Shown one piece after another: positions 6,367-61,848 of a stretch of DNA of 64,000 nucleotides (positions are counted from its first letter, which is position 1; each line of letters opens with the position of its first letter). Source of the stretch: an uncultured Alphaproteobacteria bacterium (lineage in GTDB: Bacteria > Pseudomonadota > Alphaproteobacteria > UBA6615); the NCBI GenBank assembly GCA_943787445.1, contig CALSML010000001.1, forward strand, positions 57,408 to 121,407. Reading direction: 5' to 3'. The notes under the pieces were generated by a model. That model saw only the letters and a list, made by a program, of their open reading frames with translations, was not told the DNA's origin and ran no database searches. Position numbers and translations under genes: made by a program.

Positions 6367-7419
6367 CTAATCTGTGGGTGACAGATTCGTGCCCACGCGT
6401 TTCTTCATCTCGCGCGGTTTGCGGTACACAGCCGAGGACCGCAGCACCGGCTCCCCATCGGCGTAGGAAATCGCCTCCACGAAATTTATCGTCCGGGTGC
6501 TCTTCACCAGACGCACATCGCATTCGACCCACTGGCCGGGATGGATCGGGGCCAGAAAATCCGCATCCAGATGGATCGTGGGCGTGAGCGCCACCACGCC
6601 GAGTTCGTAAAGCGCGGACTGGGCCATGGCCACATCCACGAAACTGGTCATCCAGCCGCCATGCACGACATTGCGGGGATTGAGGTGATGGGCCGCCACC
6701 CGGAAGCCGAACACCGCCTTCTTCTTCCCACACTTCACGAAGAGCGGGCCGTTGAGGCTGGTGAAGGGACTGGTGAAGGAGAATGGCTCGAACCCACGGG
6801 GCACCTTCACGGCGTTCTTCAGGCGGAACTCCATGTGGTCGAGACGGTCCGCACCCCAGAAGGTTTCTCCGTCCAGCACCATGAAGGGCGCGCCGAACAT
6901 ACCGTCACCGATCGCCCGGTCGAATGCCGCCGCCAGGGCTTTTTCTGCCTGCTTGTCGTTCTCGGCGGCCTTGATGTCTTTAATGGTCAACTGCACGCCC
7001 CGCGCCTTGCAGGCACTGGCGAGCTGGGTGGCCGTGCGAACTTCCTGTCCCGTGCCGAAATAGCGGTGATCGACGGCCTTTGCGAATTCCTTGGCCAGCT
7101 CCGGGTCCTTCCGGTTCAGGCGCCAGAAGACCAGCCGGTGCAGGGTTGCCCCATAAGGCGGCACTTTTGGCGGAAAGGGTGAGGCCACCGGCAGATTGTT
7201 CATCTCGCACAGGCGCGGCAGATCCTTTACATTGTGCGCGAACTTCGCGGCTTGATCGCGCGGGGAGATCACCTTGCGATGGGCCAGCACATCGGGCAAC
7301 GACACACAGTTCCACTCCACCTCCCGCCCCCAGCGTTTGGCGAGCGCTTCGATATTGTTCATCGCCACATAGGAATAGGCCGACACGAAATCGAAATAGA
7401 ACTTGATCGGGGTTGCCAT
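6367..7419 (-). CDS. Fusion protein: N-terminal DsbA-like 2-hydroxychromene-2-carboxylate isomerase domain plus C-terminal PaaI/hotdog thioesterase domain
   Basis: Begins MATPIKFYFDFVSAYSYV (HCCA isomerase/DsbA-like) with an RBS GGAG upstream. The C-terminus has HGGWMTSFVDVAM...PGQWVECDVRLVK (hotdog/PaaI-like). The start at 7419 was chosen over the upstream 7536 start. Confidence 0.65.
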   Translation of the reverse strand: MATPIKFYFDFVSAYSYVAMNNIEALAKRWGREVEWNCVSLPDVLAHRKVISPRDQAAKFAHNVKDLPRLCEMNNLPVASPFPPKVPPYGATLHRLVFWRLNRKDPELAKEFAKAVDHRYFGTGQEVRTATQLASACKARGVQLTIKDIKAAENDKQAEKALAAAFDRAIGDGMFGAPFMVLDGETFWGADRLDHMEFRLKNAVKVPRGFEPFSFTSPFTSLNGPLFVKCGKKKAVFGFRVAAHHLNPRNVVHGGWMTSFVDVAMAQSALYELGVVALTPTIHLDADFLAPIHPGQWVECDVRLVKSTRTINFVEAISYADGEPVLRSSAVYRKPREMKKRVGTNLSPTD

Positions 7420-11055: not shown

Positions 11056-11346
11056 ATCGACGCACTGGGGCGCGAGGTGGTGGTAACCGAAAGTCCGGTA
11101 CACGAAACCGATGCGGTACCCACGGGCAGCGGGCCCATCACCTGTGGTGTGATTGTGCTGCCTTTCGGCCCGCGTGACGGCGTCGATCACGTTCTGTGTC
11201 ACCTCTACCGGGTCGATGAAACCATGCTGGAAGGGGACGCCGAGGTGGAACTGCGTATGCCGCCGCGCGATCGAACCGGGATCAAGCGCCTGTTTGGCCG
11301 CTGATCCGGCTTGCGCCCGGCGCGCTTCGCACGGACGGGCAAGGAC

Positions 11347-26617: not shown

Positions 26618-26693
26618 TGGTGCCGCCTGCAGGATTCGAACCTGCGACCCCCGCATTACGAATGCGATGCTCTACCAACTGAGCTAAGGCGGC
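26618..26693 (-). tRNA. tRNA-Thr (anticodon CGT), 76 nt including encoded CCA
   Basis: Reverse complement GCCGCCTTAGCTCAGTTGGTAGAGCATCGCATTCGTAATGCGGGGGTCGCAGGTTCGAATCCTGCAGGCGGCACCA folds as a cloverleaf. The acceptor is GCCGCCT/AGGCGGC, the anticodon loop is TTCGTAA, and the T-arm is GCAGG-TTCGAAT-CCTGC. Confidence 0.9.
26636..26662. repeat. Left copy of 27-bp perfect direct repeat TCGAACCTGCGACCCCCGCATTACGAA (inside tRNA-Thr, anticodon stem to T-loop). Putative att core.
   Basis: Exact match to 31133..31159. Confidence 0.8.
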
Positions 26694-27111
26694 GCCGATT
26701 TGCGAGGCCTTACCTATGTAAGGCCGTCGATTGGGTCAAGCGATTTGCGTGTCGGCCGGACTGAAGTTGCCCAAAGCCTTATTCACCAACATTTCCCGGT
26801 CGGAATTGCCGTCAGAGACCATAGCGATTTAAGGGTCAAATTTTTGGTTTTTTCTGCTTGTTCCACATCCTTGGTTGATGTTGATCCCCGTATTATACGC
26901 TCACCCGAATCCGATGTGAATCGACTAGTCAGTGGAACAGGATTGGAACAAGGGTTTTAGGGTCAGGAGAAAATTGTCGCTGTGACACGGTTCCATCTCA
27001 GGACGTCACGACAACCCCCACCCCGGAGGGACAAAAATCGACCCCCTGCCGAATATATATATTGGAAGATGGCCCGGATAAATTTTAGGCCAGAGTAACC
27101 AGAGTTCCCGT

Positions 27112-27756
27112 TTAGTGCCTCAGGCTCTCACACGCGACACCGTCACGATCACCATCAAGTCGATGAGGATCACCGGGCTTGGCTGCCTCGAAGAAGCTCT
27201 GAGCTTCTTGCCACGTCTGAAAATCTCCACAGTCTTTGTCGCGAGGCATTTGGCCCGGTTTGGAATTTCCTCGCCTACCTCGCCGCCATTGCTCTGGAGC
27301 GACAAAACTTCCTGACCAAATGCCGAGTCCTGATTTCTGTGCTTCCATCTCTTCGATGACGTAGTCGGTCGAGTAGCGCCGGTAGGCTATCGCCCAACCG
27401 GTAGCAACCATCTCGCGGTTAAGTTCAACTCCGAGCGGTCCCCCTATCGAGCAGACAGCAATAATTCGACCGTAACGATCTTTGTCGATCTCTGAGCAAT
27501 CGACCCAATGGTTCTCAACCAAGGCAGCCAGAGCAGCTGTTGCCTCGAAACCACAACGCCAATCCTGACCATTGCGCGAACAAACTTGATCGCTCTCAGG
27601 CGCATCAATTCCGTGAAGGCGAACAGCGACCGAACCAAATTTGAGGGAGTCTCCGTCCACGACACGCGGTTTGCCGCTGATGGCCTCAGCGCCTTGAACG
27701 CCAATAGCGATCACGCTGATTGCAGTCGCGCAAAATAGTTTGAAAAGGTGAACCAT
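27112..27756 (-). CDS. Secreted thermonuclease (staphylococcal nuclease-like) with C-terminal Excalibur calcium-binding domain
   Basis: Signal peptide. RVVDGDSLKF...VRLHGIDAPE...DRYGRIIAVC...GWAIAYRRY is SNase-like. The C-terminal DKDCGDFQTWQEAQSFFEAAKPGDPHRLDGDRDGVACESL is an Excalibur motif. Confidence 0.8.
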   Translation of the reverse strand: MVHLFKLFCATAISVIAIGVQGAEAISGKPRVVDGDSLKFGSVAVRLHGIDAPESDQVCSRNGQDWRCGFEATAALAALVENHWVDCSEIDKDRYGRIIAVCSIGGPLGVELNREMVATGWAIAYRRYSTDYVIEEMEAQKSGLGIWSGSFVAPEQWRRGRRGNSKPGQMPRDKDCGDFQTWQEAQSFFEAAKPGDPHRLDGDRDGVACESLRH

Positions 27757-27797
27757 GGCTTTCAGGGACTCATCGTTCTGACCGACCCGACGTCCTA

Positions 27798-28103
27798 TCA
27801 GTCACTCTTCGTACAGTGGCTTTGCCACAACGTCGATAGCTGGGTCATCTCGGTCAGCGCAGCCCTGTAACGCTGGTCCATAATGTCGTAATGAGTTTGC
27901 AAATCCTCATTTGCAACATTGGGCTGACGCATATCGCGCATCAGAGAAATTAAGACGGTCATATGCGATGAGGTTTTCCGCATCTGCGACGCCAACGTCG
28001 GGCACATCTGCGGGTCGATAAGAGGTACCTCGTCACTTGCAGATGATCTCCCTCCCATGAGCAGCAGTCCCGAAACGCAGAGGGTGGAAATTAAGAGCCT
28101 CAT
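27798..28103 (-). CDS. Hypothetical secreted small protein
   Basis: N-terminal signal peptide MRLLISTLCVSGLLLMGG. No recognised motif. Located within the island, upstream on the same strand as the nuclease. Confidence 0.4.
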   Translation of the reverse strand: MRLLISTLCVSGLLLMGGRSSASDEVPLIDPQMCPTLASQMRKTSSHMTVLISLMRDMRQPNVANEDLQTHYDIMDQRYRAALTEMTQLSTLWQSHCTKSD

Positions 28104-28359
28104 AACAAATTCCTATTAGATGAATCCTTCTACTTTATAGACGACAACCAGAGACCTCTCAGCTGGGCCCAGGAGAGCCATACAAAGGCTTTGTGACTGT
28201 ATCTAAGGAAGGTAACTGACGAAAGACCAGACCTCTTACAGAGCTATAATTTTGCCTATTTATCCCAGCGTTTCCAGTGCTTTGCGGGTATTCTCTCCAG
28301 AATACGAAAAGGCCCCCGGAGATTTGTCTCACGAGGGCCTGATCATATTTCTTATAGGG

Positions 28360-28674
28360 TTAACCTGCAGCGGTATACGCACTTGCTGCTGCTTGAGCCG
28401 CCGAAACTACTTTCGGCATATCAATTTCCTCGAGGTAGTCAGCCTCTTCGAAAGCACCACTCGCCTTAATTGCAAGAACAAGACCCATCGCCGTTTCATG
28501 GTCTTTGACCTCTACGCGGACAACGACGTCGTATTTCCCTCGAACGAAGGCGATGTAGTCAGATGTGCCACCAACCGCATCCATCAGTTTTTTGATCGCA
28601 GCTTCTCGATCTGAGCCACCAATCAGACCCTTCAGCGCATGCGGGGCATATTTTCCTAGAAGTAATGCTTTCAT
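28360..28674 (-). CDS. GYD domain-containing protein
   Basis: About 104 aa, MKALLLGKY...GGTSDYIAFVRGKYDVVVRVEV...AMGLVLAIKASGA pattern consistent with the GYD family. A probable terminator hairpin lies downstream (about 28303..28345). Confidence 0.55.
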   Translation of the reverse strand: MKALLLGKYAPHALKGLIGGSDREAAIKKLMDAVGGTSDYIAFVRGKYDVVVRVEVKDHETAMGLVLAIKASGAFEEADYLEEIDMPKVVSAAQAAASAYTAAG

Positions 28675-29151
28675 AATGTCCTCTCTGAATTATCTACCTA
28701 CGGATAACTATCTACACCTAACTCGTGAACGAAAGAGAACCTAATTTTTAACAAAGGCACTCCGTTTGAGGCTGAACGTAACGCTACAGCATCCTCAGGT
28801 CGTATGGTCGAGAAGCTGATCGACTCGTACCCAATGTCGGTCGCCTCAGGCAGCCTCGCTGTGCCTCACAATGCACTGGCAACTCTGGAGCGTCTGCAAA
28901 ATCTTGAACCTGCAAGACGGTTTGAGGTTCGTAACCCTGATCCTGATGAGATAGACCGACAGATCGCTCACTACCTTGATGTCATTGGGACTGGCCAAAA
29001 CAAAAGGCCCCCGGACAGGATGCATTTCAGTGAGCCTTAGATTGTGACCAATTCCGAACGTCACACCAAAAGTCTGTTACAGACTTATAAATATTTTGAT
29101 TTGGTTATTTTATGGAACTCCATTGGGCAGGTTCCATATTGCAACTCAGCA

Positions 29152-29415
29152 TCAAGTGTTCTTGACCACCTTAATCCCCTTTCCTCCCCGACCACGAGAC
29201 TTATAAATCGTATAGCCCTTTGCGCCTAAGTTGAGTGATTCAACGCCTTCGGCCGAAGAGAGTATACTTGCAATTTTCTCTGCAACTTTATCCGACTTTT
29301 CTAACTTAGAATTGGCCTTCCGCCATTCATCAAATGCCTTTTGTCCTAATTCGTCGCCTATTGATTTCTTCAAAGCGTTTAATTTGCGAATTTCGCCTTT
29401 GGTCAAATCTGACAT
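29152..29415 (-). CDS. Hypothetical Lys-rich small protein
   Basis: 87 aa ORF with an AT-rich promoter-like region upstream. No recognised motif. Confidence 0.3.
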   Translation of the reverse strand: MSDLTKGEIRKLNALKKSIGDELGQKAFDEWRKANSKLEKSDKVAEKIASILSSAEGVESLNLGAKGYTIYKSRGRGGKGIKVVKNT

Positions 29416-29576
29416 ATCTACCTTCTAGTTGAATTTAAAAAATAAGATTATAGGACTTTTTTTGATGAGATTCAAAATAAAAATTTTGACCAACAAAGAT
29501 GTTAGTCCCATTTTGTTGGATTACTAATCATGTTTAGTTTTTTCATCAGGTATCAAACACGGGAGTCCAAAATAAT

Positions 29577-29954
29577 ATGGTTAATTCACTGACAGGAGCA
29601 CTCGCTGAGGGCGATCTAAGCCTCATAACTCTTAAGGCGCTGCTGGATAATAGCTTCGATTCAATCCTAATCACGGATTCAACCAAGGCTGGAAAAATTC
29701 TTTATACCAATAACGGTTTTAAGGTTTTGACCGGTTACTAAACAAAAGAAGTGATTGGGAAAAACTCCCGTATTTTGCAAGGCACGGCCACCGACAAAAA
29801 GGTACTGGAGCGTCTCCGCAAGGCCCTCACGGATGGAAAGCCGTTCGAAGGCCGAGCGATAAACTACAAGAAGAACGGAACTCCCTTCATCATGCATTGG
29901 CGCGTTGTCCCGGTTAAAGTCGGTCGCAATACAAAGGTATGGTTGGCGATCTAG
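29577..29954 (+). pseudogene. Short LOV-like PAS domain gene interrupted by in-frame TAA (29739..29741). The LOV cysteine is replaced by Ser (NSRILQG).
   Basis: ITDSTKAGKILYTNNGFKVLTGY-*-TKEVIGKNSRILQGTATDKKVLERLRKALTDGKPFEGRAINYKKNGTPFIMHWRVVPV parallels LOV ITD...[27 protein letters not shown]...NYRKDG. Both parts are in the same frame (29577 and 29751 both ≡ 0 mod 3). Confidence 0.6.
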
Positions 29955-30127
29955 CGAGAAGGTTCGGCAGTCAAGTAGTCTTGGCGTCGCCGGTTCAAAA
30001 ATGACCTTCAAAAGTTTGTCATTAAGCTAACCCAGCATTCGGGCAAGGTCTTCCGGTCTCAGCTGGACGTACCGCTGAAGCATCCTGAGGTCCTTGTGGC
30101 CGGTTATCGCTGCCACCTCCATCACGC

Positions 30128-31012
30128 CTAGCCCTTTCTCGAAGAACCGGTTGTTGCCTCATGTCTGAGGTCATGGAACCGAAGACCTGTTATGTCGGCT
30201 CTTCTGGTTGCCCGGCGCCATAGTCCCTTCAGGGCCTCAGGATGGACTGGGATCACCCCACCAGAGATAGACCTTGGTAAGGCCTCGATGGTTTGTCGTG
30301 CCACTGGAGACAGCGGGACATCTCGGCTTGTTCCATTCTTGGTCAGTGCGAGATGGACATAGTTCTGGTCGAGGTGGAGATCATCCCAATCCAGACCGAG
30401 TAACTCACCACGTCGCATGGCTGTCTCAATGGCTAGGGTGACCAGAGGGGCGAGGTAGGGATTGTCTGATGCCTGACATGCCATCATCAATCGTTGCCCC
30501 TCATCACCCTCCAGCCTTCGAGTTCTCCCCTTGGGCTGTGTCGGCTTTCGGAGGTTGGCTGCGGGATTGCCGGGAAGATTGAACCCCCACTCGGACATCG
30601 CAATACGGATAGCGTGGCTGATGATCGAAAGATCACGATTACAAGCAGATGCACCGACTTCGCTCAGTCTTTCGTCTCTATACCGAGCTAGGTGGCCGGA
30701 GTTTAGTTTGGAGAGCCAAATATTCCCAAGCCATAATTTTTGTAGTCTCGCGACAACATAAGATTCTTTATCATAACCCCTCTTCAGAGGCGAAATCTCT
30801 CGTCCATAACGGTCCAGTATATCCCTGACCATACAGTCATTGGTGATTAGGTGACCAAGGTCGATTTGTCGTTCTGTCTCAATCGCCCATTTTTGCGCAT
30901 CTAAATGTAAGTCGAACGTTTTTGTTTGGCTTGGTATTCCAAGACGCCTTATTCGAACTGTGTACCGGCCTTTTCGTTTCATTATTGCTGGCAATTCCAA
31001 CTCCGTTGTCAC
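30128..31012 (-). pseudogene. int: Tyrosine-type site-specific integrase, C-terminally frameshifted. The catalytic Tyr region lies out of frame.
   Basis: Core ...GELLGLDWDDL...VHLALTKNGTSRDVPL...GLRFHDLRHEAT, then a premature stop. The -1 frame continues (N)RFFEKGLGVMEVAAITGHKDLRMLQRYVQLRPEDLARMLG*, which is the typical integrase C-terminus with the RY catalytic tyrosine, ending about 30048. An alternative ATG start (MKRKGRYT) is at 30982. Confidence 0.75.
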
Positions 31013-51589: not shown

Positions 51590-53497
51590 CTATTTGGCCG
51601 CCATCCTGTCGGAGGGCGGGCCGTCGGAGTGAAACTCGGGAATCAGATGGGCGAGCTGGGCACGGCAGGCTGTGTTGTCGCCGGCTTTCGCGGCCTTGCT
51701 CAAATCGTCGATGGCGCGTTCGAGCACGTCGCGATCGGCCACGCGCGGGGTGGCGAGCTGGATCGCGGCATTGCCGGTCGGCGACAGGCTTTCGGCATCG
51801 TGAAACAGCTCTTCATAGAGCTTCTCACCGGTGCGCAAGCCGACGAATTCGATGTCGACATCCTCATAGGGGCGCTTGCCGGCGAGGCGGATGATCTGTT
51901 CGGCCAGATCGGCGATCCGCACCGGTTCGCCCATATCCAGAACAAAGATTCCGCCTGCATCCGCCGAGCCGAGCGCTGAGGCCTGGAGCACCAGTTCCAC
52001 GGCCTCCCCGGTGGTCATGAAATAGCGGGTGATGTCCTTATGGGTCACGGTCAGTGGTCCGCCGGCGGCGAGCTGTCGCTCGAAGAGCGGAACGACCGAG
52101 CCGGTCGAACCCAACACATTGCCGAAGCGCACGGTGATGAAGCGGCAGTCGTCACCCGCATGCGCGCGGTCCAGAGCCTGGCAATAGCTTTCAGCGACGC
52201 GTTTGGTGGCCCCCATGGCGCTGGTCGGATTGACCGCCTTGTCGGTGGAGATCAGGACCATCTTCCGCGCGCCGGTGCTGCGACATAGATCGGCGACGAT
52301 GCGCGACCCGCCAATATTGGTCAGCACGCCTTCGGCCACGTGGGACTCAACGATGGGCACATGTTTGAGGGCAGCGGCGTGGAATACGAGTTCGGGCCGG
52401 GCTTCCGCGAAGACAGCCGCCATGGCCGACTGATCGCGAACATCGGCGAGATGGGCCATATGGACAAGCCCGTCCTTGTTCTCGCGCATCTCCAGATCGA
52501 TCGAATAGAGGTTGAATTCGGAATTGTCGAGGAGATCGAGCCGCGACGGAGCCAGGGCCGCGATCTGGCGCACCAGCTCGCTGCCGATCGTGCCGCCCGC
52601 CCCTGTGACCAGCACCCGACAGCCCTTGACGAGTTGTTCCATCGCCGGTCGGTCGAGCACCGCCTGAGGGCGTCCGAGCAGATCCTCGACGGCCACGGGT
52701 TTCACCTCGATGGTTTCGCCAATTCCGGATTCGAAATCGGTCAGGCGGGGCAGTCGTGCCATCGACATGCCATGGGTTTCCGTGAGGTCGAGCAGGTGTC
52801 GCATGAGGGCCGGCTCGAGACCGCGCTTGGTGACAACCAGCCGCTGCGGGCGTTCGGCGCGCAGGGCCAGGCGTCGCATCACATCGGCTAGATCATCGGG
52901 CGTGCCCAGCACCGAGACATTGCGGATCTGCCGCCCGACCCGATGCCCCTTTTCGTCCAGCACGCCGACCACCCGATAGGCCGCCCCGGGCTGGCGGGCC
53001 AGATCGCGGATGAAGGCTTCGGCTTCGTCGCCGGCTCCCACGAGCAGAACCGGAACAGCGGGCTTGCTGGTCGGGTCGACGGTTAGCTCGAAATGGCGGT
53101 CCTTGACCAGCCGGTACAGGAAGCGGGGTCCGCCCAGCAGAGCCATCAACACGAACCAGTTGATCAGCGGCAGGGAGCGCGGCAGGAATTCGGCCCGGGA
53201 TGCGATGAACAGGATCGGGACGAAAATCAGGACTGCGAGGCTGACCGCCTTGGTGATTGCGATCAGATCGTTCATGGACGCGTAGCGCCAGATGCCGCGA
53301 TACAGGCCCATGGGCCAGAACACGCAGGTCGAGATCACGGCAAACAGCACCATGCTCTGGACGATAAATTCCGTGGGAACGGTGTTGATGGAATCGCCCA
53401 TGCGCAGCCACAGGGACAGAGGCAACGAAATCGACGCCATGAAGATGTCGTGTCCGTAGGCGATATTCGCCCGGCCGAATCGTAATTTTGATCGCAT
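51590..53497 (-). CDS. Membrane-anchored NDP-sugar 4,6-dehydratase (PglF/WbpM/CapD-like polysaccharide biosynthesis protein)
   Basis: N-terminal TM segments followed by the [14 protein letters not shown] Rossmann motif and an SDR-extended dehydratase domain. Confidence 0.8.
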
Positions 53498-53564: not shown

Positions 53565-54674
53565 TCACGGGTGACGGTTTGCGGGGATTGTTGTCCGTTT
53601 CATCCACACCAGGAGGGCGAGAACCAGAAGTGCGGCCACCGCGAGCGCGGCAAATCGCCAGATCGACCCTGCGGCCAACATCGTCGTTCCGGCGGCCAGG
53701 AGGATCAGCAGGAGATTGACCAGCCCCACGGCCATGCTGACCTGGCCATGGCTGCGGCCATTCTGAACGGCCTTCTGGTAGTAATGTTCCCGATGGGCCA
53801 GCCAGATCTTTTCGCCCCGCTGCAGCCGCCGCAACAGGGTGAGCGTGGCATCAGCCAGATAGTAGAGAGGCAGGATCACGGCGGCCTCCCATTGTCCGTG
53901 TGCTGCGAGCGCCAGCAACAGCCAGCCCAACAGATAACCCAGCGGAACGCTGCCGATGTCACCGAGAAATATTTTCGCCGGTGGCCAGTTCCAGACCAGA
54001 AAGCCCAGAGCGGCGGCCGTGATGGCCAGGCCGTGCAGATGCATTGCCGACAGGCTGTCGGTGGTCAAAAGCCCGATGGTCAGGATGCCGGCACCGATTC
54101 CCATGGATTCGATGCCGCTGATGCCATCGATGCCATCCATGAAGTTGAACAGGTTCACGAACCAGATCCAGCCGATCACCGTGACCGCGGCATCCAGCCA
54201 GGGGGGAAGCAGGCCCTGAAACACCAGGCCGGGCAGCACCATCACGCCAAGTATCGCCGCGGCGAATTGCATACCCAGCCGGGGCAAAGCGCTCAGGCTG
54301 CGCAAATCATCGATCCAGGAGACCCACGCAAGGGCCAGCGCGGCCAGCGGGATCAGCCAGTTTGCCACGGGGTCTGAGCCCGGGACGACAAGACCGATGA
54401 TCAGCCAGGCCGAGAGTAACACGGCGATGACGCCCAACCCGCCGCCCCGAGGGGTCGGCACCACATGGGAGCTGCGATCATTGGGCCGGTCGAGAATCTC
54501 GTGACGCAACAACTGGCCGCGAACGAACCAGACCAGACCGGTAGTGGTCAGCGCGACGGCAACAGCGATGATGACGAGGATCCAGATCACGGCAGGGTCA
54601 TTGAATAGCGGATGGTGCAGCGCTTGTAGCGGCAAAAACAAAGGCCCGGCAAGGTGCCGGGCCTGAGAAGGCAA
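53565..54674 (-). CDS. Polyprenyl-phosphate HexNAc-1-phosphate transferase (WecA/MraY-like, GT4 family initiating enzyme)
   Basis: Multi-TM protein with the FLGDIGSVPLG motif and a DD motif, typical of the MraY/WecA superfamily. Confidence 0.75.
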   Translation of the reverse strand: MPSQARHLAGPLFLPLQALHHPLFNDPAVIWILVIIAVAVALTTTGLVWFVRGQLLRHEILDRPNDRSSHVVPTPRGGGLGVIAVLLSAWLIIGLVVPGSDPVANWLIPLAALALAWVSWIDDLRSLSALPRLGMQFAAAILGVMVLPGLVFQGLLPPWLDAAVTVIGWIWFVNLFNFMDGIDGISGIESMGIGAGILTIGLLTTDSLSAMHLHGLAITAAALGFLVWNWPPAKIFLGDIGSVPLGYLLGWLLLALAAHGQWEAAVILPLYYLADATLTLLRRLQRGEKIWLAHREHYYQKAVQNGRSHGQVSMAVGLVNLLLILLAAGTTMLAAGSIWRFAALAVAALLVLALLVWMKRTTIPANRHP

Positions 54675-54688
54675 AACTAAGTGCCGGA

Positions 54689-55828
54689 CTATGCCGCCCG
54701 CAGATCTAGATGATCGAGCTGGCGGGCGATAACCTTCTGCTCGTCAAACAGACGGCGTGCGCGTTCCAGACCGGCCTTTCCCATGCGTTCGCGCAACCGG
54801 GATTCGGCAACCAGAGATCGCAAACCGTGCGCCAGTGCATCTGCATTGCGAACTGGGACCAGCAAACCGGTCTCGCCATCCACCACCTCTTCGCGGCTAC
54901 CGCGGATATCGGTCGCCACCACCGGTCGTCCGGTCAGCATGGCCTCGATGATCGAACGCGGCATGCCCTCCCGATGGGATGGCAGAGTGAAAATGTCAGC
55001 CGCCCGCATCAGATCGGGAACGTCCTGTCGGTAGCCCAGAAAACGAATGCGGGATTTGAGGTCCGGATCGCGATCGATCGACGCGATGATGTCGGCAATT
55101 CCCGACGCGTGATCGCTTTCCAGCCGCGCGCCCACAGCCCAGAGCTCGGCATCTATATCACGCATGGCGGTGACGAGTTCCCGGTAGCCCTTTTCCTCCA
55201 CCAGCCGTCCGGTCATCAAAACCACAACGCGGTCCGCCGGGGTTCCCAGAGACTCCCGGATGCGCATGCGGGCATTATCCGGATCCTCCGGTGTGAAAAT
55301 ATCCGGGTCGCTGCCATTGCCGATCGCCAGAACATCACCGGTTTTGCAGAGGCCCAGACGGCCCGCGGTTTCTGCATCTTCTTCGGATTGGGTGAACAGG
55401 GTGTGTGTGGCACGACCGGCGAGCCATTCCAGGCTGATATGGGCGGCCCGTCGCGGTGCGGGCATATGTTCATGGAAATAGAATCCGTGTGCGGTATAGG
55501 CGACCCGCGGCACCCGGGCCATTTTCGCCGCCATCCGACCAATCAGGGAGCCGACCGGTGTGTGCGTGTGCACCAGGTCAAATTGCTCATCCCGAAAAAG
55601 CTGCCGCAGGGCGCGTGTCGCCCGGATATTGCGGATCGGGTTGATCGTGCGGGCCAGCGGCACGGTCTCAACGCGGAATCCCTCGTCGCGGACCAGCGGT
55701 ACAAGGTCCCCGTCCGCGCACACACCGACAACCTCATGCCCCTCTTTCCGCATCGCATGCATGAGCGGGCGCAGAAAATGGTACAGGGTGAAATCGACCG
55801 TGCAGAGTTGGCAAATCTTCAGGGGCAT
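54689..55828 (-). CDS. Glycosyltransferase family 1 (GT4-type)
   Basis: GT-B fold with a C-terminal EGMPRSIIEAMLTGRPVVATD motif (E-x7-E region). Confidence 0.8.
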   Translation of the reverse strand: MPLKICQLCTVDFTLYHFLRPLMHAMRKEGHEVVGVCADGDLVPLVRDEGFRVETVPLARTINPIRNIRATRALRQLFRDEQFDLVHTHTPVGSLIGRMAAKMARVPRVAYTAHGFYFHEHMPAPRRAAHISLEWLAGRATHTLFTQSEEDAETAGRLGLCKTGDVLAIGNGSDPDIFTPEDPDNARMRIRESLGTPADRVVVLMTGRLVEEKGYRELVTAMRDIDAELWAVGARLESDHASGIADIIASIDRDPDLKSRIRFLGYRQDVPDLMRAADIFTLPSHREGMPRSIIEAMLTGRPVVATDIRGSREEVVDGETGLLVPVRNADALAHGLRSLVAESRLRERMGKAGLERARRLFDEQKVIARQLDHLDLRAA

Positions 55829-55956
55829 ATCAAAATATTAGTCTTTTCCTAAACAGACGGATTCAATATGGGCCGGTGCGAAAGGATGCACGTGTTGACG
55901 GCATGGGTCTATCTTGGTCCCGCTGATACCCATTGCCGGGATTTGAAAGGAAATCA

Positions 55957-56202
55957 ATGAGCCTCGTCTTGATCGGTGCCGGTGGACACGCGCTTGTTGT
56001 GCTCGATGCTGCACTGTCCGGTTCACTTCCTGTTGCTGGACTGGTCGATCAGGTAGTGCCGCCCGGCCAGATGATCGGTTCTGCACCAGATGTGTATATC
56101 TCCGGATCAAGCGACAGGATCGACATCCAGCAACTGCTTTCGGCCCAGGAGGCCTCGGGCGGCGTCACCACACCCGGGATGTCCGCAAACAGGTCTGCAT
56201 AG
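55957..56202 (+). pseudogene. Possible remnant of a PglD/NeuD-type sugar N-acetyltransferase (N-terminal ~30 aa motif only)
   Basis: MSLVLIGAGGHALVVLDAALSGSLPVAGLVDQ resembles the nucleotide-binding N-terminus of PglD/NeuD. The hexapeptide-repeat domain is absent. The ORF runs antisense into the aminotransferase gene. Confidence 0.3.
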
Positions 56203-56861
56203 CGTCCCGCCACATCACGCTTGCGGCTGACAAAATCGTCGAGCCTGTCGAGCTGCGCGACGATGAGGGCCGCGTTCAGATTGGGCATCCGGTAGTTGAA
56301 CCCGATCTCGCCATGGGCAAAATACAACGCATCGTCGCGCGCCTGACTGGCGAGATAGCGCACGCGTTTGGCGATGTCGGGGTCCGGTGTCAGCACCATG
56401 CCGCCCGCCCCGCCGGTGATGATCTTGTTACCGTTGAAACTGAGTATGGCTGTGTGACCAAGTCCGCCCACCGGCCGATCCCGGCAGCGCGCGCCAAGCG
56501 CTTCTGCTGCATCCTCCACCACGGTGATGCCGTAGGGCTTCAGGATCGTGTCGAGGGCATCCATGTCAACGGGGTGGCCATAAAGATGGAACGGGACAAT
56601 CGCCTTGATGGTCTTTCCGGTGCTGCGTTCGGTAGTCGTCCCGTCAGCCGTGTCACATTCGTTCTGCAGGAAGTTCTGCAGACCATCGAGATCGAGCAGC
56701 CCGGTCCGGGGATCGACATCGGCCAGTAAGGGGGAAGCCCCGCAGTAGCAGATGGAATTCACGGTGGCGACAAAGGTTGCCTCGGGAACGATCACCAGAT
56801 CACGATCACCGACGCCGATGGCCAGCAATGCCAGATGCAGCGCTGCGGTCCCGGGTTGCAC
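56049..56861 (-). pseudogene. DegT/DnrJ/EryC1/StrS family sugar aminotransferase, 5'-truncated (lacks ~60 N-terminal residues)
   Basis: Begins at ...GTAALHLALLAIGVGDRDLVIVPEATFVATVN. A stop lies 11 codons upstream in frame. No N-terminal segment is found in the other two frames, which are occupied by the ligase gene's C-terminus. Confidence 0.65.
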
Positions 56862-58125
56862 TGTAACCGGATTCCCTTTCCATGGGTCGTGTCACCACGG
56901 CGATTGTCAGTGCTGCGGCGACCCAGAGCGTGGCCTGCCACCAGCCTTGCCAGGCCCCGAAACTGAGTTCGAAAAGCAGAATGCCTGCGACGCAGGTTGC
57001 GGCCACACAGGCTTTTTCGAACCGGTGCCGGACGTGTTTGTGAATCGCGCGCAGGGCAGCCAGGGTCACAAAACCGACCAGAAGAATCCCAGGCAGTCCG
57101 AGTTCCAGCCAGATCTGGAGAAATCCGTTATGGGGGTGCAGCGGCAGAAACTCACCGGGCGTGGTGTCACCATCGATATTGACCAGCAGATCGAAGGTTT
57201 CGCGACCACCGGGTATGGCGCGCGCTGCGTCGAGGCCCCAGCCGGAAATCGGTTTGTCGATCACCCGGTCGGCGGCGAATTCCCAGATAGCCAGACGGTG
57301 GTTGATGCCCTGATCCACATGACCGATGGCGCGGAGATAATCGGCGATATCAGGCGCCCAGATGGTCCACATGGGCAGAACGGCAATCGAGATGACCGTC
57401 GCCAATCCGATCACCCAGATCGCAATTCCCGGGACGGCGAGAACCAGAGCGGCAGCCAGACTGGCCACCAGCAGGGCGAGCAAGGATGCGCTGCTGTTGA
57501 GAATGGCCAGTATCACGATACAGGTCAGCAAGGCGCCGAACGCGAACAGGGTGCCCGCCTGTCGCTGAGCCGCCAACACCAGTGTCCAGGCCAGAAGGGC
57601 AATGAGTCCCGAGGCGCGGTTGAAAAAGGCCAGCCCATAGGACCCGGCGCCTTCGTCACCGTTCAGCAACCGGCTGACCGGTGCATCGAGCACAAATTCG
57701 ATCAGGATGAATGCGATGGCGGTGGCGAAACCGGCGATCAGGGCTTTGCCGATCACACGTTGTTCCCCGGCGCTGCAGTTGCGCGCGAGAGAGATCAGAA
57801 ACAGGCCGCCGACAATGAACATCACGATATTGGTGAGCACATGCTGGGTGCGGCCCTGTGATGGACTCCATTGCATGGTTATGGCGGCCCAGATCACCAG
57901 CAGGACCAGGGCTGCCAGAATGCCGTAGGACGGCAAGCTCACCTTGCGTCGCTGGATTAGGCTCATTGCGGCGCCAATCAGGGCGGCGGCTGCCGCCAGA
58001 ATCCAGATGATCGACGGGCCGAGAACCGACAGGATCGGAAGTGTGAACGCCAGTCCCGGAAACACGATATGAGGCCCGAGGGCGGTTTTCTCAGTCCGGG
58101 CTGAAGGCTCTAGATCAACGGACAT
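56806..58125 (-). CDS. O-antigen ligase / Wzy_C domain membrane protein
   Basis: Eleven or more TM segments, with a periplasmic loop containing NHRLAIWEFA...SGWGLD (Wzy_C/WaaL-type motif). Confidence 0.7.
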   Translation of the reverse strand: MSVDLEPSARTEKTALGPHIVFPGLAFTLPILSVLGPSIIWILAAAAALIGAAMSLIQRRKVSLPSYGILAALVLLVIWAAITMQWSPSQGRTQHVLTNIVMFIVGGLFLISLARNCSAGEQRVIGKALIAGFATAIAFILIEFVLDAPVSRLLNGDEGAGSYGLAFFNRASGLIALLAWTLVLAAQRQAGTLFAFGALLTCIVILAILNSSASLLALLVASLAAALVLAVPGIAIWVIGLATVISIAVLPMWTIWAPDIADYLRAIGHVDQGINHRLAIWEFAADRVIDKPISGWGLDAARAIPGGRETFDLLVNIDGDTTPGEFLPLHPHNGFLQIWLELGLPGILLVGFVTLAALRAIHKHVRHRFEKACVAATCVAGILLFELSFGAWQGWWQATLWVAAALTIAVVTRPMERESGYSATRDRSAASGIAGHRRR

Positions 58126-58217
58126 ACTGAGTTCGGTGGTTTCGGAATGTATGACGTGGCGTGAACAGGAATCTAGCACGCGAAACCTTGCGTCGGACGA
58201 AGTGACGAAGGGGGGTG

Positions 58218-60182
58218 CTAGACGGCTTCATGCTCACGCCAGGCCTGAAACATCAGGATAGCCCACAGTCGATGCTCCCAGTTGCGACGGCCCGAGAGAT
58301 GTTCGGCCCAGGCTTTGCGAATGGGAATCGGGTTCAGCAACCCGTCGCGGCTCAGTGCGTCTTCGGCGAGCAATGTTTCGGCCCAGTCGCGCAGATCTGT
58401 GCGCAACCAGCGCCCGATGGGAACCCCGAAACCCATTTTCGGGCGCTCGATCAGCTCGCGGGGGACGTATCGTTCGAGGAGTTTGCGCACGGGCCATTTC
58501 GTGGCGCCGTCTCGCAACTTCATGGAGAGGGGCAAGCTCCAGGCGAAGGCCCCGATGGTGTGATCGAGGAAGGGCACCCGTCCCTCAAGTCCCACGGCCA
58601 TCGCGGCACGATCGAATTTGACCAGAATATCGTTTGGCAGATAACCGGTGGTGTCGAGCAGAAGCATTTCCTGGGTGAAGTCGTTCAGCTCCGGCCAGTC
58701 GGTCATCGCGCCGCCATAGCAGCGGGGTTCGGTTGCGCCGGGCACCAGAGCGCCCGGGTCGTTCCATTGAGAGAGCAATTCCAGATAGAGGGCGTGACGG
58801 TCCGGGGCTCGCAGCAGTTCTGCCAGTTTGTGGATCTTGTGCCCGACCTGCACCTGACGGTCCCGGGTACAACGCCATGCAACGGCGGTGTTGTAAATCC
58901 CGTCCCAGACCTGTGGTGGGGCGGCCCGCATCATGCCGGTGGCCAGTTTTCGGACCGGTTCGGGCAGGGCTTCCACCACGCCGCCGATCCGGTTGCCCCA
59001 GGCATAGCGATTGTAGCCGACAAACTGTTCATCCCCTGCATCGCCGGACAGGGATACGGTCACCAAATCACGTGCCAGTTGAGAGACCAGAAAGGTGGGT
59101 ATCTGGGATGAATCCGAGAATGGCTCGTCATAGATTTCGGGAATTCTGGGGATGACGTCCTGCACTTCGGCAGGCGTGACATAGAGTTCTGTATGGGCAG
59201 TTCCGAGATGGGCTGCGACCGCCGCCGCGTATTGGGCTTCGTTGTATTGCGCTTCATGAAACCCGATCGAGAAGGTGCGGATGGGCGCGCTGCTACGAGC
59301 CTGCATGAGTGCGACGATGGTGGATGAATCCAGCCCGCCGGACAGAAACGCGCCCAACGGGACATCGGATACCATGCATCGTTCCACCGCCGCCCCGAGC
59401 AGGCGATCGAGTTCGTCGACGGCGTCTTCGGGAGTGCCCGCAAACGGCGTGGCAAGCCCGTCGCGGGCGATCTGTTCTGCAGACCAGTAGGGCTGAAGGG
59501 GCGCGATCTGCCCGCTCTCGAGCGCTTTTGTGTCGATGGTCAGGGTGGTGCCGGCAACCAGCTTGTGGGTCTTGCGAAAAATCGCATGGGGCGCCGGGAC
59601 ATTCCCGAAGCGCAGATACATGGCGAGCGCATCGGGATCGATGTCTGCCACGAAGTCCGGGTGAGCCCGTAGCGCTGACAGTTCTGATCCGAAGGCGATA
59701 CCACCGGGGAGCAGGGCGTAATAGAGCGGTTTCTGGCCATAGCGGTCGCGGGCGAGCGACAGGGAGTGCGTTTCCCGGTCCCAGAGCGCAAAGGCGAACA
59801 TGCCATTGGTGCGCTTGAGTGCATTAGCAAGACCATGCCGTTCGATCAGGGCGAGCAGCACCTCGGTGTCCGACGTGCCGCGGAAGCCGATGCCGGCGTC
59901 TTCCAGTTCGCGGCGCAGCTCGGGAAAATTATAGATCTCGCCATTGTAGGACATGACATAGCGCCCGCTCGGAGAGGGCATGGGCTGGTGACCCGTCTCC
60001 CTGAGATCGATGATCGCGAGGCGTCTGTGGGCGAGGCCGATCCCGTGTTCCGGATCGACCCAGACCCCATCGCCATCCGGCCCGCGATGGGCGACCGCCA
60101 GTCCCATGGCGTTGGCGACCCGCTGCAACGCGGTTTCACCTTCGATGCCCGCACGCGACCAGAACCCGGCAATGCCACACAT
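58218..60182 (-). CDS. asnB: Asparagine synthase (glutamine-hydrolysing) family amidotransferase
   Basis: MCGIAGFW N-terminal nucleophile and an SGGLDSS PP-loop. Its position in the glycan locus suggests a sugar amidotransferase role. Confidence 0.85.
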
Positions 60183-61354
60183 TATGGCTTGCCCGCGGTT
60201 TCCGGTATCATGACGTGCTGATAGAGGTCGTCATAAGCTCGGGCACAGATATCCAGTCCATAGGTGTTTTCGATTTCAACGCGTGCGGCTGTGCCCATGG
60301 CATCGCGCCGGGCGGGGTCCTGGGCCAGTTCGAGAATGGACTGCGCCAGTGCATCCGGGTTGTGGGCAGGGACCAGCAGTCCGGTGACCCCGTGGTCGAT
60401 AATCTCTCCGGTCCCGCCAACCTTCGTGGCGATGGTCGGGACGCCGGCCGACATGGCTTCGATCACCGCATTGGGCAAACCTTCTTCGTGAGAACAGAGA
60501 AGCGAAACATCCGCCATGCTCAAAAGAGCCGGGATATCCGAGCGTGAGCCGAGGAAGCGGATATGCGGGGCAAGTCCCGCCTCTGCGCTTTGCGCCTGAA
60601 GGGCACCTCCGATGCCGTCATCCCGGCCGACACACAAGAGCTGCCAATTGTCGGGCAGGGCGTCGCGGATGCTGGCAAGTGCTGTGATCAGATCGGCATG
60701 TCCTTTGTAGGGAATTAGATTGGCGACAATCATCAACACCAGCGAATCCGGCGGGATTGTCAGGGATTGCCGCAGCCTGGCACCGCGGGCGGCATCGGGA
60801 CGAATCGCGTTGGTGTCGACCCCGTTGAGAATCACCCGGGTGCGATGTTCGGGGATGCCTTCTTCGAGGAGTTCGCCGCGAATGGCCTCGCTGTTGGCGG
60901 TCACCACAGCCATGTGTTTGTGCAGCCAGCGTTCGACCCGGGCAAGAAAGGGATAGCGGTCCTGATAATGGGCGAGACTGCGCCGGCTCATGATCATGCG
61001 GGACTGTCCGGCCAGCACCGCGCACAGGCCGCCGATGAGATAGGCCTCGGGCAGGATAAAATGGGCCATGGCGGGGCGTTTGCGCAGGAACCAGAACCAC
61101 AGCCACGGCACGGTGATCAGCGCACGCAGCAAACGAATGAGTGGCCCGCTGCGGGTGATGCGGCTGGCCAGTGGTGGCGACCAGACCCGGAACCCGGCGG
61201 TTTCGAGGTCTTCGGCCAGAGGACCCGGGCGGGAGAGCGTGACGAGATCAATCTGCCACCTATCCCGATCCAGCCGTGGCACGATCTGCGCGATCTGACG
61301 TTCGGCGCCGCCCACCTGCAGTGAGCCGATCACGATGACAATGCGATGGGTCAT
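60182..61354 (-). CDS. Glycosyltransferase family 1
   Basis: GT-B fold with [20 protein letters not shown] near the C-terminus. Confidence 0.8.
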
Positions 61355-61359
61355 GTTGT

Positions 61360-61848
61360 CTATTGGTCCGATTGGTCGAAATCGATGACCTTTTCCATCA
61401 GCTCGCGCGCCGCACCCTCGCCCCCCTTGCGGGTCAGGACGTGGTCCACACGCGCCAGAACATCGGGATGCGCATCGGCGACGGCAACGGGATAGCCGAC
61501 AAGGTTCAGGGCCGGCAGATCATTGAGGTCATTGCCGATAAACATGAGCCGTTCGGATATATAGCCGTGGGCCTCACACAATTCGCGAATGGCGACCGCC
61601 TTGTCGGAAACGCTGTCGATGACCGGGACCTGCAGCTTGGCACCACGGGCGCGCACCACCGGGTTAGTTTCGGTCGAGACGATGTAGACCGGAAACCCGA
61701 CTGCGCGGAAATGATCGAAGGCCAGTCCGTCGGCGCGATTGCACACGACAGCTTCGGTTCCGTCGCTGAACATCAGAACGCGATTGTCGGTCAGGACGCC
61801 GTCGAAATCGAATATCAGAGCGTCGAGGTCGTTCGATTTTACCTTCAT
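61360..61848 (-). CDS. KdsC-family HAD phosphatase (3-deoxy-ulosonate phosphate phosphatase-like)
   Basis: LIFDFDGVLTDNRV...GNDLNDLP are HAD-IIIA/KdsC motifs, and the length is ~162 aa. Confidence 0.8.
   Translation of the reverse strand: MKVKSNDLDALIFDFDGVLTDNRVLMFSDGTEAVVCNRADGLAFDHFRAVGFPVYIVSTETNPVVRARGAKLQVPVIDSVSDKAVAIRELCEAHGYISERLMFIGNDLNDLPALNLVGYPVAVADAHPDVLARVDHVLTRKGGEGAARELMEKVIDFDQSDQ

Follow-up and report, generated by a model that had tools for sequence, protein, structure and literature searches.

Probable remains of a di-N-acetylbacillosamine-type gene pair, lost by stepwise deletion from a surface-glycan locus of an uncultured alphaproteobacterium

Sugars of the di-N-acetylbacillosamine (diNAcBac) type are made in Campylobacter jejuni by PglF, PglE and PglD and in Neisseria by PglD, PglC and the acetyltransferase domain of PglB, in both cases as the uridine diphosphate (UDP)-linked form, while LegB, LegC and LegH carry out the first steps towards legionaminic acid. 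The PglF/WbpM class of UDP-N-acetylglucosamine (UDP-GlcNAc) 4,6-dehydratases is defined by the signature TDKxnMx3K, in which Met replaces the catalytic Tyr (PMC8987622, Table 1). In the O-antigen clusters of Pseudomonas, the wbpL-wbpM pair is conserved at the border and the remaining content is variable (PMC6804347), and in a wreQ mutant of Rhizobium etli, where the tailoring enzyme of the N-acetylquinovosamine (QuiNAc) branch is missing, a residue of 4-keto-6-deoxy-GlcNAc enters the finished lipopolysaccharide (LPS) (PMC4514872). Here we describe a glycan locus in a 64-kb stretch of DNA from an uncultured alphaproteobacterium (contig CALSML010000001.1; the whole stretch is called the window below), in which two convergent genes of the interval 55930-56900, encoding a sugar 4-aminotransferase and an N-acetyltransferase, very probably survive only as dead remnants, a branch that we take to be of the diNAcBac type having been lost by stepwise deletion with the rest of the locus probably still working.

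A protein search with the aminotransferase fragment of the window returned a protein of the same length (P0001, 270 residues, one residue different) and full-length relatives of 385 residues, the closest of which (P0002) is 88% identical. Five contigs that encode P0002 (L001-L005), including the NCBI metagenome-assembled genome (MAG) GCA_018666195.1 'Alphaproteobacteria bacterium', were taken as the reference DNA. They have in common the gene order AsnB (654 residues), Wzy_C (427), aminotransferase (385), acetyltransferase (207, facing the aminotransferase), glycosyltransferase of the GT4 family (379), WecA-like transferase (369), PglF-like dehydratase (635) and purH; in L001 the aminotransferase and acetyltransferase genes are convergent, with abutting stops (11158/11159). 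The window is colinear with these contigs at 80-86% nucleotide identity, two gaps excepted, and in a tblastn comparison of the L001 proteins with the window all flanking genes were found at full length and only the aminotransferase and the acetyltransferase were partial. The alignment to intact relatives that had been proposed as a check in the original prediction, which was made from the letters of the window, thus shows that a full 385-residue aminotransferase and a full 207-residue acetyltransferase belong here, between Wzy_C and the GT4, WecA-like and PglF-like genes. What is left of them, and the two junctions that account for the gaps, are as follows.

56070..56861, minus strand: remnant of a DegT/LegC-like sugar 4-aminotransferase, codons ~51-314 of 385 (partial Pfam and NCBIfam matches; tblastn)
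55957..56079, plus strand: remnant of a NeuD/PglD-family N-acetyltransferase, first 37-41 codons of 207, part of the PglD_N domain (Pfam PglD_N; L001 alignment)
56861..56862: junction left by deletion 1, which measures 179 bp against L001 (9972/3-10150/1; three-way register comparison and multiple alignment)
56067..56080: junction left by deletion 2, which measures 727 bp against L001 and 740 bp against the conspecific L102 (breakpoint scan and multiple alignment)

Deletion 1 took the last six codons and the stop of Wzy_C, a 9-bp spacer and aminotransferase codons 1-50, with a microhomology of only ~1-3 nt at the junction. As a loss of 179 bp, no multiple of three, shifts the reading frame, Wzy_C continues into the aminotransferase sequence in the wrong frame for ~19 codons: it is native up to residue ~421 of 427, and its last ~6 native residues are swapped for a tail of ~19 residues (56806-56861) that ends with SGYSATRDRSAASGIAGHRRR and a stop. 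The end of the Wzy_C open reading frame (ORF) at 56806 therefore lies inside the aminotransferase ORF, which it overlaps by 56 nt in a different frame, as had been rightly seen in the original prediction, where the 3' end of the ligase was said to occupy the space of the missing aminotransferase N-terminus. Deletion 2, whose crossover lies within an imperfect microhomology of ~14 nt (C[C/G]ATC[A/T]TC[C/T]G..), took aminotransferase codons ~312/315-385 and acetyltransferase codons ~38/42-207.

The called aminotransferase ORF (56049-56861, minus strand) comprises 270 residues with a GTG start; its aminotransferase-derived part ends with SGAEPII, and the final six codons (WPGGTT, then a stop) are antisense of the acetyltransferase remnant. 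It matches the Pfam family DegT_DnrJ_EryC1 (PF01041) with 236.5 bits (cutoff 19.8, E 6.8e-70) over profile positions 48-279 of 360 only, and its best NCBIfam family is LegC (TIGR04181; 309 bits over positions 52-302 of 359), below the cutoff of 420. With intact P0002 as the query, tblastn found residues 49-314 only (window 56867..56070, 87.6% identity). The lysine motif SFNGNKIITGG, which binds pyridoxal phosphate (PLP), and the phosphate-binding GTAALHLAL are kept, and both align to the motifs of the structure 7b0m; the complete DegT fold of ~360-390 residues, with its N-terminal segment, large PLP domain and C-terminal domain, is absent, as are the native start codon and ribosome-binding site. 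Judged by its sequence, the 270-residue ORF is a gene fragment and not a member of the DegT family in the functional sense. That it begins at GTAALHLAL with a stop 11 codons upstream had been noted correctly (the GTG is at 56861, the in-frame TGA at 56892-56894), and so had the lack of its N-terminus, yet the gene is not only 5'-truncated as had been thought: the C-terminal 71 residues are missing as well, which had been overlooked.

The lost pieces were sought in the whole window, both with fragments as protein queries (E of 10 or less, word size 2) and with the deleted DNA of L001 and L102, and neither the N-terminal 50 and C-terminal 71 residues of the aminotransferase nor residues 42-207 of the acetyltransferase gave more than chance-level matches there (best E 0.046-0.38 at the protein level). 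Relocation of these pieces by inversion or translocation within the window was rejected on this ground, and an alternative start that would restore a full-length aminotransferase, named in the original prediction as a way to refute it, is impossible, as the window does not contain the lost DNA. Being truncated with respect to intact orthologs at the same syntenic position, the gene would be classed operationally as a pseudogene.

On the opposite strand, both the ATG (55957) of the acetyltransferase remnant and a Shine-Dalgarno sequence, AAGGA (55947-55951), are preserved; the plus-strand ORF listed from TTG 55933 carries MSLVLIGAGGHALVVLDAAL. The fragment matches Pfam PglD_N with 24.2 bits (cutoff 23.4, E 5e-5) and the NeuD/PglB/VioB family (TIGR03570) with 19 bits over positions 2-32 of 202, short of the cutoff of 160.8, and about 34 of its codons 1-41, counted by eye from ATG 55957, agree with the N-terminus of the 207-residue acetyltransferase of L001. 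Beyond codons 37-41, the ORF of ~81 codons (55957-56202, plus strand) is antisense of the aminotransferase remnant up to the stop at 56202; the hexapeptide-repeat beta-helix domain with the catalytic His is deleted. The PglD/NeuD-like fragment of the original prediction is therefore real and no chance match, but only the first 37-41 of its ~81 codons derive from an acetyltransferase. Its opposite-strand orientation is native and does not call for an inversion, since intact relatives have the two genes as a convergent pair. In these relatives (L001, the P0003 contig, L091 at 11145-11158 and L102 at 7008-7022), the two genes abut, overlap by 4-14 nt or stand ~13 nt apart, and space for an intervening terminator is absent.

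The order of events can be read from conspecific strains. In a multiple alignment, deletion 1 is exactly common to the window, L101 and L102, which are 98.7% and 97.9% identical to the window across this region, and deletion 2 is found in neither of the two. L102 keeps a 207-residue acetyltransferase ORF and has Trp239 (W239) of the aminotransferase remnant changed to a stop, whereas in L099-L101 the remnant stops after residue 125 and another deletion, of ~311 bp, extends over the 3'-3' junction; common variants of the remnant alter conserved positions (SFNGNK to SFSGNK, NLNAAL to NLDAAL). Because deletion 1 is common to strains with different later lesions, and one of these strains still has its acetyltransferase whole, the first event was deletion 1, which inactivated the aminotransferase; what remained of that gene, and the acetyltransferase, decayed afterwards along separate paths. 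Different additional disabling lesions among close relatives that share the first one again mark the gene as a pseudogene. Deletion 1 fused the 3' end of Wzy_C out of frame to aminotransferase codon 51, at the cost of the start, the ribosome-binding site and 50 residues; with the aminotransferase dead, the acetyltransferase would have been left without a substrate, so that deletion 2, which then removed both 3' ends across the convergent junction, would have been tolerated. The loss of the amino-sugar steps with retention of the dehydratase, as originally predicted, thus holds good, the dehydratase being full length, but its cause is a pair of deletions and not a rearrangement.

The neighbourhood of the remnants is intact.

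56806..58125, minus strand: Wzy_C-domain gene, encoding an O-antigen ligase, polymerase or PglL-like protein (Pfam Wzy_C; tblastn residues 1-425, 83.8% identity)
55829..55956: divergent intergenic region between the GT4 gene (minus strand) and the acetyltransferase remnant (plus strand), retained and colinear with L001 11783-11910
54689..55828, minus strand: GT4-family glycosyltransferase, intact, 379 residues (Pfam; 87.3% full-length identity to the L001 ortholog)
53565..54674, minus strand: WecA/MraY-type polyprenyl-phosphate N-acetylhexosamine-1-phosphate transferase, the initiating enzyme, intact (PF00953; 87.7% identity to L001)
51590..53497, minus strand: membrane-anchored UDP-GlcNAc 4,6-dehydratase of the PglF/WbpM class, intact, 635 residues (PF02719; 93.5% identity to L001)

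The initiating transferase had been described as WecA/PglC-like, of which the WecA half stands: it matches PF00953 with 108.9 bits (cutoff 27) and no other Pfam family, so that none of its Pfam matches is to the PglC-type (Bac_transf) family, and as it scores 63.7 against TIGR02380 (wecA), where the cutoff is 326, the assignment holds at the family level only. The PglF-like dehydratase of the original prediction is borne out; it has the SDR domain Polysacc_synt_2 (PF02719, 351 bits) and, as read from its sequence, the signature TDK...MGATK and a hydrophobic N-terminal region of ~130 residues, features that would place it in the PglF/WbpM class. In every relative examined, the WecA-like and PglF-like genes stand together at the purH-proximal, conserved end of the variable locus, and the flanking genes are intact in all Illumina-type contigs, the split genes in L095, L099 and L100 looking like single-base assembly noise. 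Decay of the dehydratase in L099 (9794-11700, where ten 1-nt insertions split the gene) was considered and rejected: the insertions are confined to L099, and the gene is intact in L100 and L101 of the same haplotype, hence assembly noise is most likely. The Wzy_C ORF can be extended upstream to a GTG at 58179 (457 residues, also found in gene calls on related contigs); the ortholog alignment favours the ATG at 58125. Long antisense ORFs of 298-380 residues on the plus strand, at 54710-55852, 56752-57861 and 58215-59111, lie opposite GT4, Wzy_C and AsnB; they are probably artefacts of composition, as they overlap well-supported genes in sequence of 60% G+C. Rfam and tRNA scans gave no RNA feature in or near 55930-56900. 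Elsewhere in the window, a tRNA-Thr(CGT) gene (26618-26693) is followed within a few kb by a phage-integrase-family ORF (30128-31012, minus strand), with few long ORFs between them, and 26618-31012 may be a small integrated element.

Further to the left the glycan locus is mosaic. L006 is nearly the same as the window up to ~59000, after which it diverges sharply (window 59000-60426), and L102 is ~98% identical around the remnants but, against window 58221-61848 further left, from only ~70% (GT4_390) to 84% (AsnB) identical, with a heavily divergent HAD-hydrolase gene; the points of divergence in both look like recombination breakpoints inside the locus. L006, with an overall identity of 93%, was therefore rejected as a second lineage that shares the deletions: over 54172-59000 it hardly differs from the window, it diverges only beyond, and, being a mosaic or recombinant, provides no independent evidence on the age of the deletions.

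The same gene pair has also been damaged in a sister lineage of about 70% amino acid identity (~71% for L015 and L016), which has the same gene order next to purH (region 9900-11700 in L015 and L016). A scan of GTDB genomes with P0002 gave close matches in L015 and L016 only, and returned neither the species of the window nor the L003 MAG. The state of the two genes in this lineage is the following.

L104: aminotransferase intact (387 residues); acetyltransferase intact (206 residues)
L094: aminotransferase with E273 changed to a stop by a single TAA; acetyltransferase matching residues 1-205 of 207
L107: aminotransferase with W328 changed to a stop; deletion of ~470-507 bp inside the acetyltransferase gene
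L105 and L106: aminotransferase with W328 and Q253 changed to stops; acetyltransferase deletion as in L107
L015 and L016: aminotransferase with TAG at codon 18 and a -1 frameshift at codon 215; deletion of 202 bp that spans the 3'-3' junction

In L015 and L016 the catalytic-His motif IDHGC of the acetyltransferase reads VDDDS. Taken together, at least three independent inactivations have occurred in the sister lineage and one in the lineage of the window, and four different deletions in the two lineages affect the convergent junction or the acetyltransferase gene.

Could the truncated genes be a product of misjoined or collapsed assembly, the real genome having both genes intact? The source is apparently a metagenome-derived assembly, and the related 'contig_N' assemblies L095, L099 and L100 show obvious single-base indel noise. 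However, five contigs from other runs and projects (L006-L010) cross both junctions without indels, base for base, at 99.5-99.9% identity or better; L095-L098 contain the exact ORF of the window (P0126) with the same gene spacing, P0126, for which NCBI, Logan and ENA are given as sources, being seen on eight contigs; several more 270-residue variants in its 90% cluster, from Logan, ENA and JGI, have the same start and the same junction-derived tail; and the 179-bp deletion is present in two diverged conspecific haplotypes. Identical junctions in independent assemblies from Logan, ENA, JGI and NCBI exclude the misassembly that had been offered as a refutation, and we give it practically no credence. 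A few other observations weigh against the reading of the interval as dead remains of a diNAcBac-type branch; some concern the constraint on the remnant and others the identity of the sugar. Among strains that share deletion 1, the ratio of nonsynonymous to synonymous polymorphism (pN/pS) of the remnant is 0.34-0.37 (12N:11S and 7N:7S, small counts at a mosaic locus), below the value of 1 of a neutral pseudogene and no higher than in intact Wzy_C (0.36) or GT4 (0.22-0.35), and recombination may blur it further. Against L001, the corresponding divergence ratio (dN/dS) is 0.074, in the range of the intact genes compared (0.03-0.14). Neither ratio can tell here whether the gene is still constrained or has only recently become a pseudogene, and the first is not at odds with dead remains. 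One could suppose that the 270-residue fragment still works, as a minimal PLP domain or in a new function, and is kept by selection: besides these ratios, its frame is open over 266 homologous codons, the GTAAL and SFNGNK motifs are kept, and a purine-rich stretch lies ~10 nt upstream of the GTG. Yet the fragment has lost the native start, the ribosome-binding site, the N-terminal 50 and the C-terminal 71 residues, the latter a part of the C-terminal domain; conspecifics have premature stops after its residues 125 and 238; common variants alter the Asn beside the catalytic-lysine motif; and the partner acetyltransferase is destroyed. A recent loss would leave the same low dN/dS with respect to L001; by this measure the gene was a working one for most of its history, and its loss is recent relative to a dS of ~0.7-1.0. 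A functional fragment is accordingly regarded as highly improbable, and the two genes are taken to be dead. For the PglF-like gene, pN/pS of 0.13-0.14 among the strains sharing deletion 1 is consistent with continued function of the dehydratase after loss of the aminotransferase.

As to the sugar, intact P0002 has LegC as its top NCBIfam family at 379.7, again below 420, and the best relatives of solved structure include GDP-perosamine synthase and perosamine N-acetyltransferase of Caulobacter (GDP, guanosine diphosphate); moreover, only the 64-kb window was available, and a compensating paralog may lie elsewhere in the genome. The structural relatives of the pair in PDB include 7b0m (an unnamed sugar aminotransferase), the Caulobacter perosamine synthase, PglE (1o61, 4ztc), PerB, PglD (3bss) and 4m98, a 'pilin glycosylation protein' of Neisseria that we take to be PglB; the intact acetyltransferase of L001 passes the NeuD/PglB/VioB cutoff with 189.6. 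The pair might accordingly have served a GDP-linked branch, leading to N-acetylperosamine or through GDP-diNAcBac towards legionaminic acid, in which case its loss would tell nothing of the product of the dehydratase. This is suggested by the matches to the Caulobacter enzymes (3bn1, E 6.5e-62; 4ea7, E 1e-29), by LegC as the top family and by L091 (1-11774), where a convergent pair of 70% identity comes after a short LegB-like short-chain dehydrogenase/reductase (SDR) together with two nucleoside triphosphate (NTP)-transferases, Epimerase_2, NeuB and CTP_transf_3, a complete-looking cluster of the legionaminic-acid type, so that another lineage uses this gene pair in the context of nonulosonic acids. 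On the other hand, the 10 kb to each side of the aminotransferase in L001-L005 contain no called NeuB, cytidine monophosphate (CMP)-transferase or short-chain 4,6-dehydratase of its own; GDP-mannose-dehydratase-type and LegB-like SDRs, NeuB and CMP-transferase are lacking in the same intervals and among the scanned ORFs of the window; in this lineage the PglF/WbpM-class enzyme, at a distance of three genes, is the sole 4,6-dehydratase near the pair; and as the LegC route, like that of PglE, leads to a diNAcBac nucleotide, the lost chemistry would be much the same. A GDP-linked branch is thus considered unlikely, and a diNAcBac-type sugar is the best inference from LegC as the top match, the adjacent PglF/WbpM-class dehydratase and the 70%-identical pair in the legionaminic-acid-like cluster. 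A further alternative concerns not the fact of the loss but its cause, namely that it was selected rather than merely tolerated, an altered surface glycan being favoured, for instance, under pressure from phages or grazers. At least four independent primary inactivations of one gene in two sister lineages with intact neighbours (in Illumina-based contigs), the presence of intact and broken lineages in one sample (ERZ27295583, with L002 and L101) and the nature of the rest of the locus, a recombining and variable glycan island, speak for it; relaxed selection predicts the same pattern, however, and the organisms are uncultured, so that selected loss is put forward tentatively, as the less probable of these causes. 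More speculative still is the extended proposal that the pair is a hotspot of adaptive parallel loss, with at least four events across the two sister lineages, in which the 4-acetamido sugar would have been switched off and the dehydratase and initiating transferase kept, co-existing glycotypes are kept by phage or grazer pressure and the first sugar is a 4-keto sugar, a reduced one or plain GlcNAc.

Under the diNAcBac-type reading, the ancestor would have used the PglF/WbpM-class dehydratase, the 4-aminotransferase and the N-acetyltransferase in turn to make the nucleotide donor of a 2,4-diacetamido-2,4,6-trideoxyhexose for a surface glycan. All three enzyme classes of the routes in C. jejuni and Neisseria recur in the intact relatives, with the differences that two of the three steps are deleted in the window, that the initiating transferase is of the WecA/MraY and not of the PglC type, and that PglE (E 2e-47) is less close to the aminotransferase of the relatives than LegC and perosamine-synthase sequences are. 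To the LegB-LegC-LegH route it is likened by LegC as the top family and by the pair in L091, but the LegC cutoff is not reached and NeuB, LegG and LegF are not found near the pair in the lineage of the window. The position of a WecA-type transferase beside a WbpM/PglF-class dehydratase at the fixed end of a variable locus is likewise that of wbpL-wbpM in Pseudomonas, although the window comes from a different lineage and function is assigned here from family membership alone. The dehydratase, the WecA-like transferase and the other remaining genes of the locus probably still function, and the deletion strains, which would be unable to make a 4-amino or 4-acetamido sugar from this locus, would build a glycan without it, with GlcNAc, a 4-keto sugar or a reduced sugar of the QuiNAc or N-acetylfucosamine (FucNAc) type in the first position. 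A 4-reductase gene for such tailoring was not identified in the window. The 4-keto residue in the LPS of R. etli makes a similar outcome plausible for the deletion strains, with the difference that the tailoring step there is a 4-reductase and not an aminotransferase/acetyltransferase pair.

Bacterial pseudogenes decay by deletion, a first inactivating lesion being followed by nonsense, frameshift and deletion lesions that differ from strain to strain. The pattern is the same here, with deletions confined to dispensable genes, and genes of known enzyme families are seen to decay, in a glycan locus of variable content, as pseudogenes ordinarily do. The finding reveals no new kind of system; it rises above routine only in the well-resolved order of events and in the repeated independent loss of one gene pair in related lineages, the number of events at a single pair being its one notable feature. 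For annotation, the 270-residue 'perosamine synthetase' and the ORF of ~80 residues should be flagged as pseudogene fragments, and the Wzy_C gene as carrying a foreign C-terminal tail. The pair of dehydratase and WecA-like transferase is apparently still useful without the amino-sugar branch, and at least two glycan types are predicted within one uncultured species. The locus offers a clean and fully mapped natural case of the trimming of a surface-glycan pathway.

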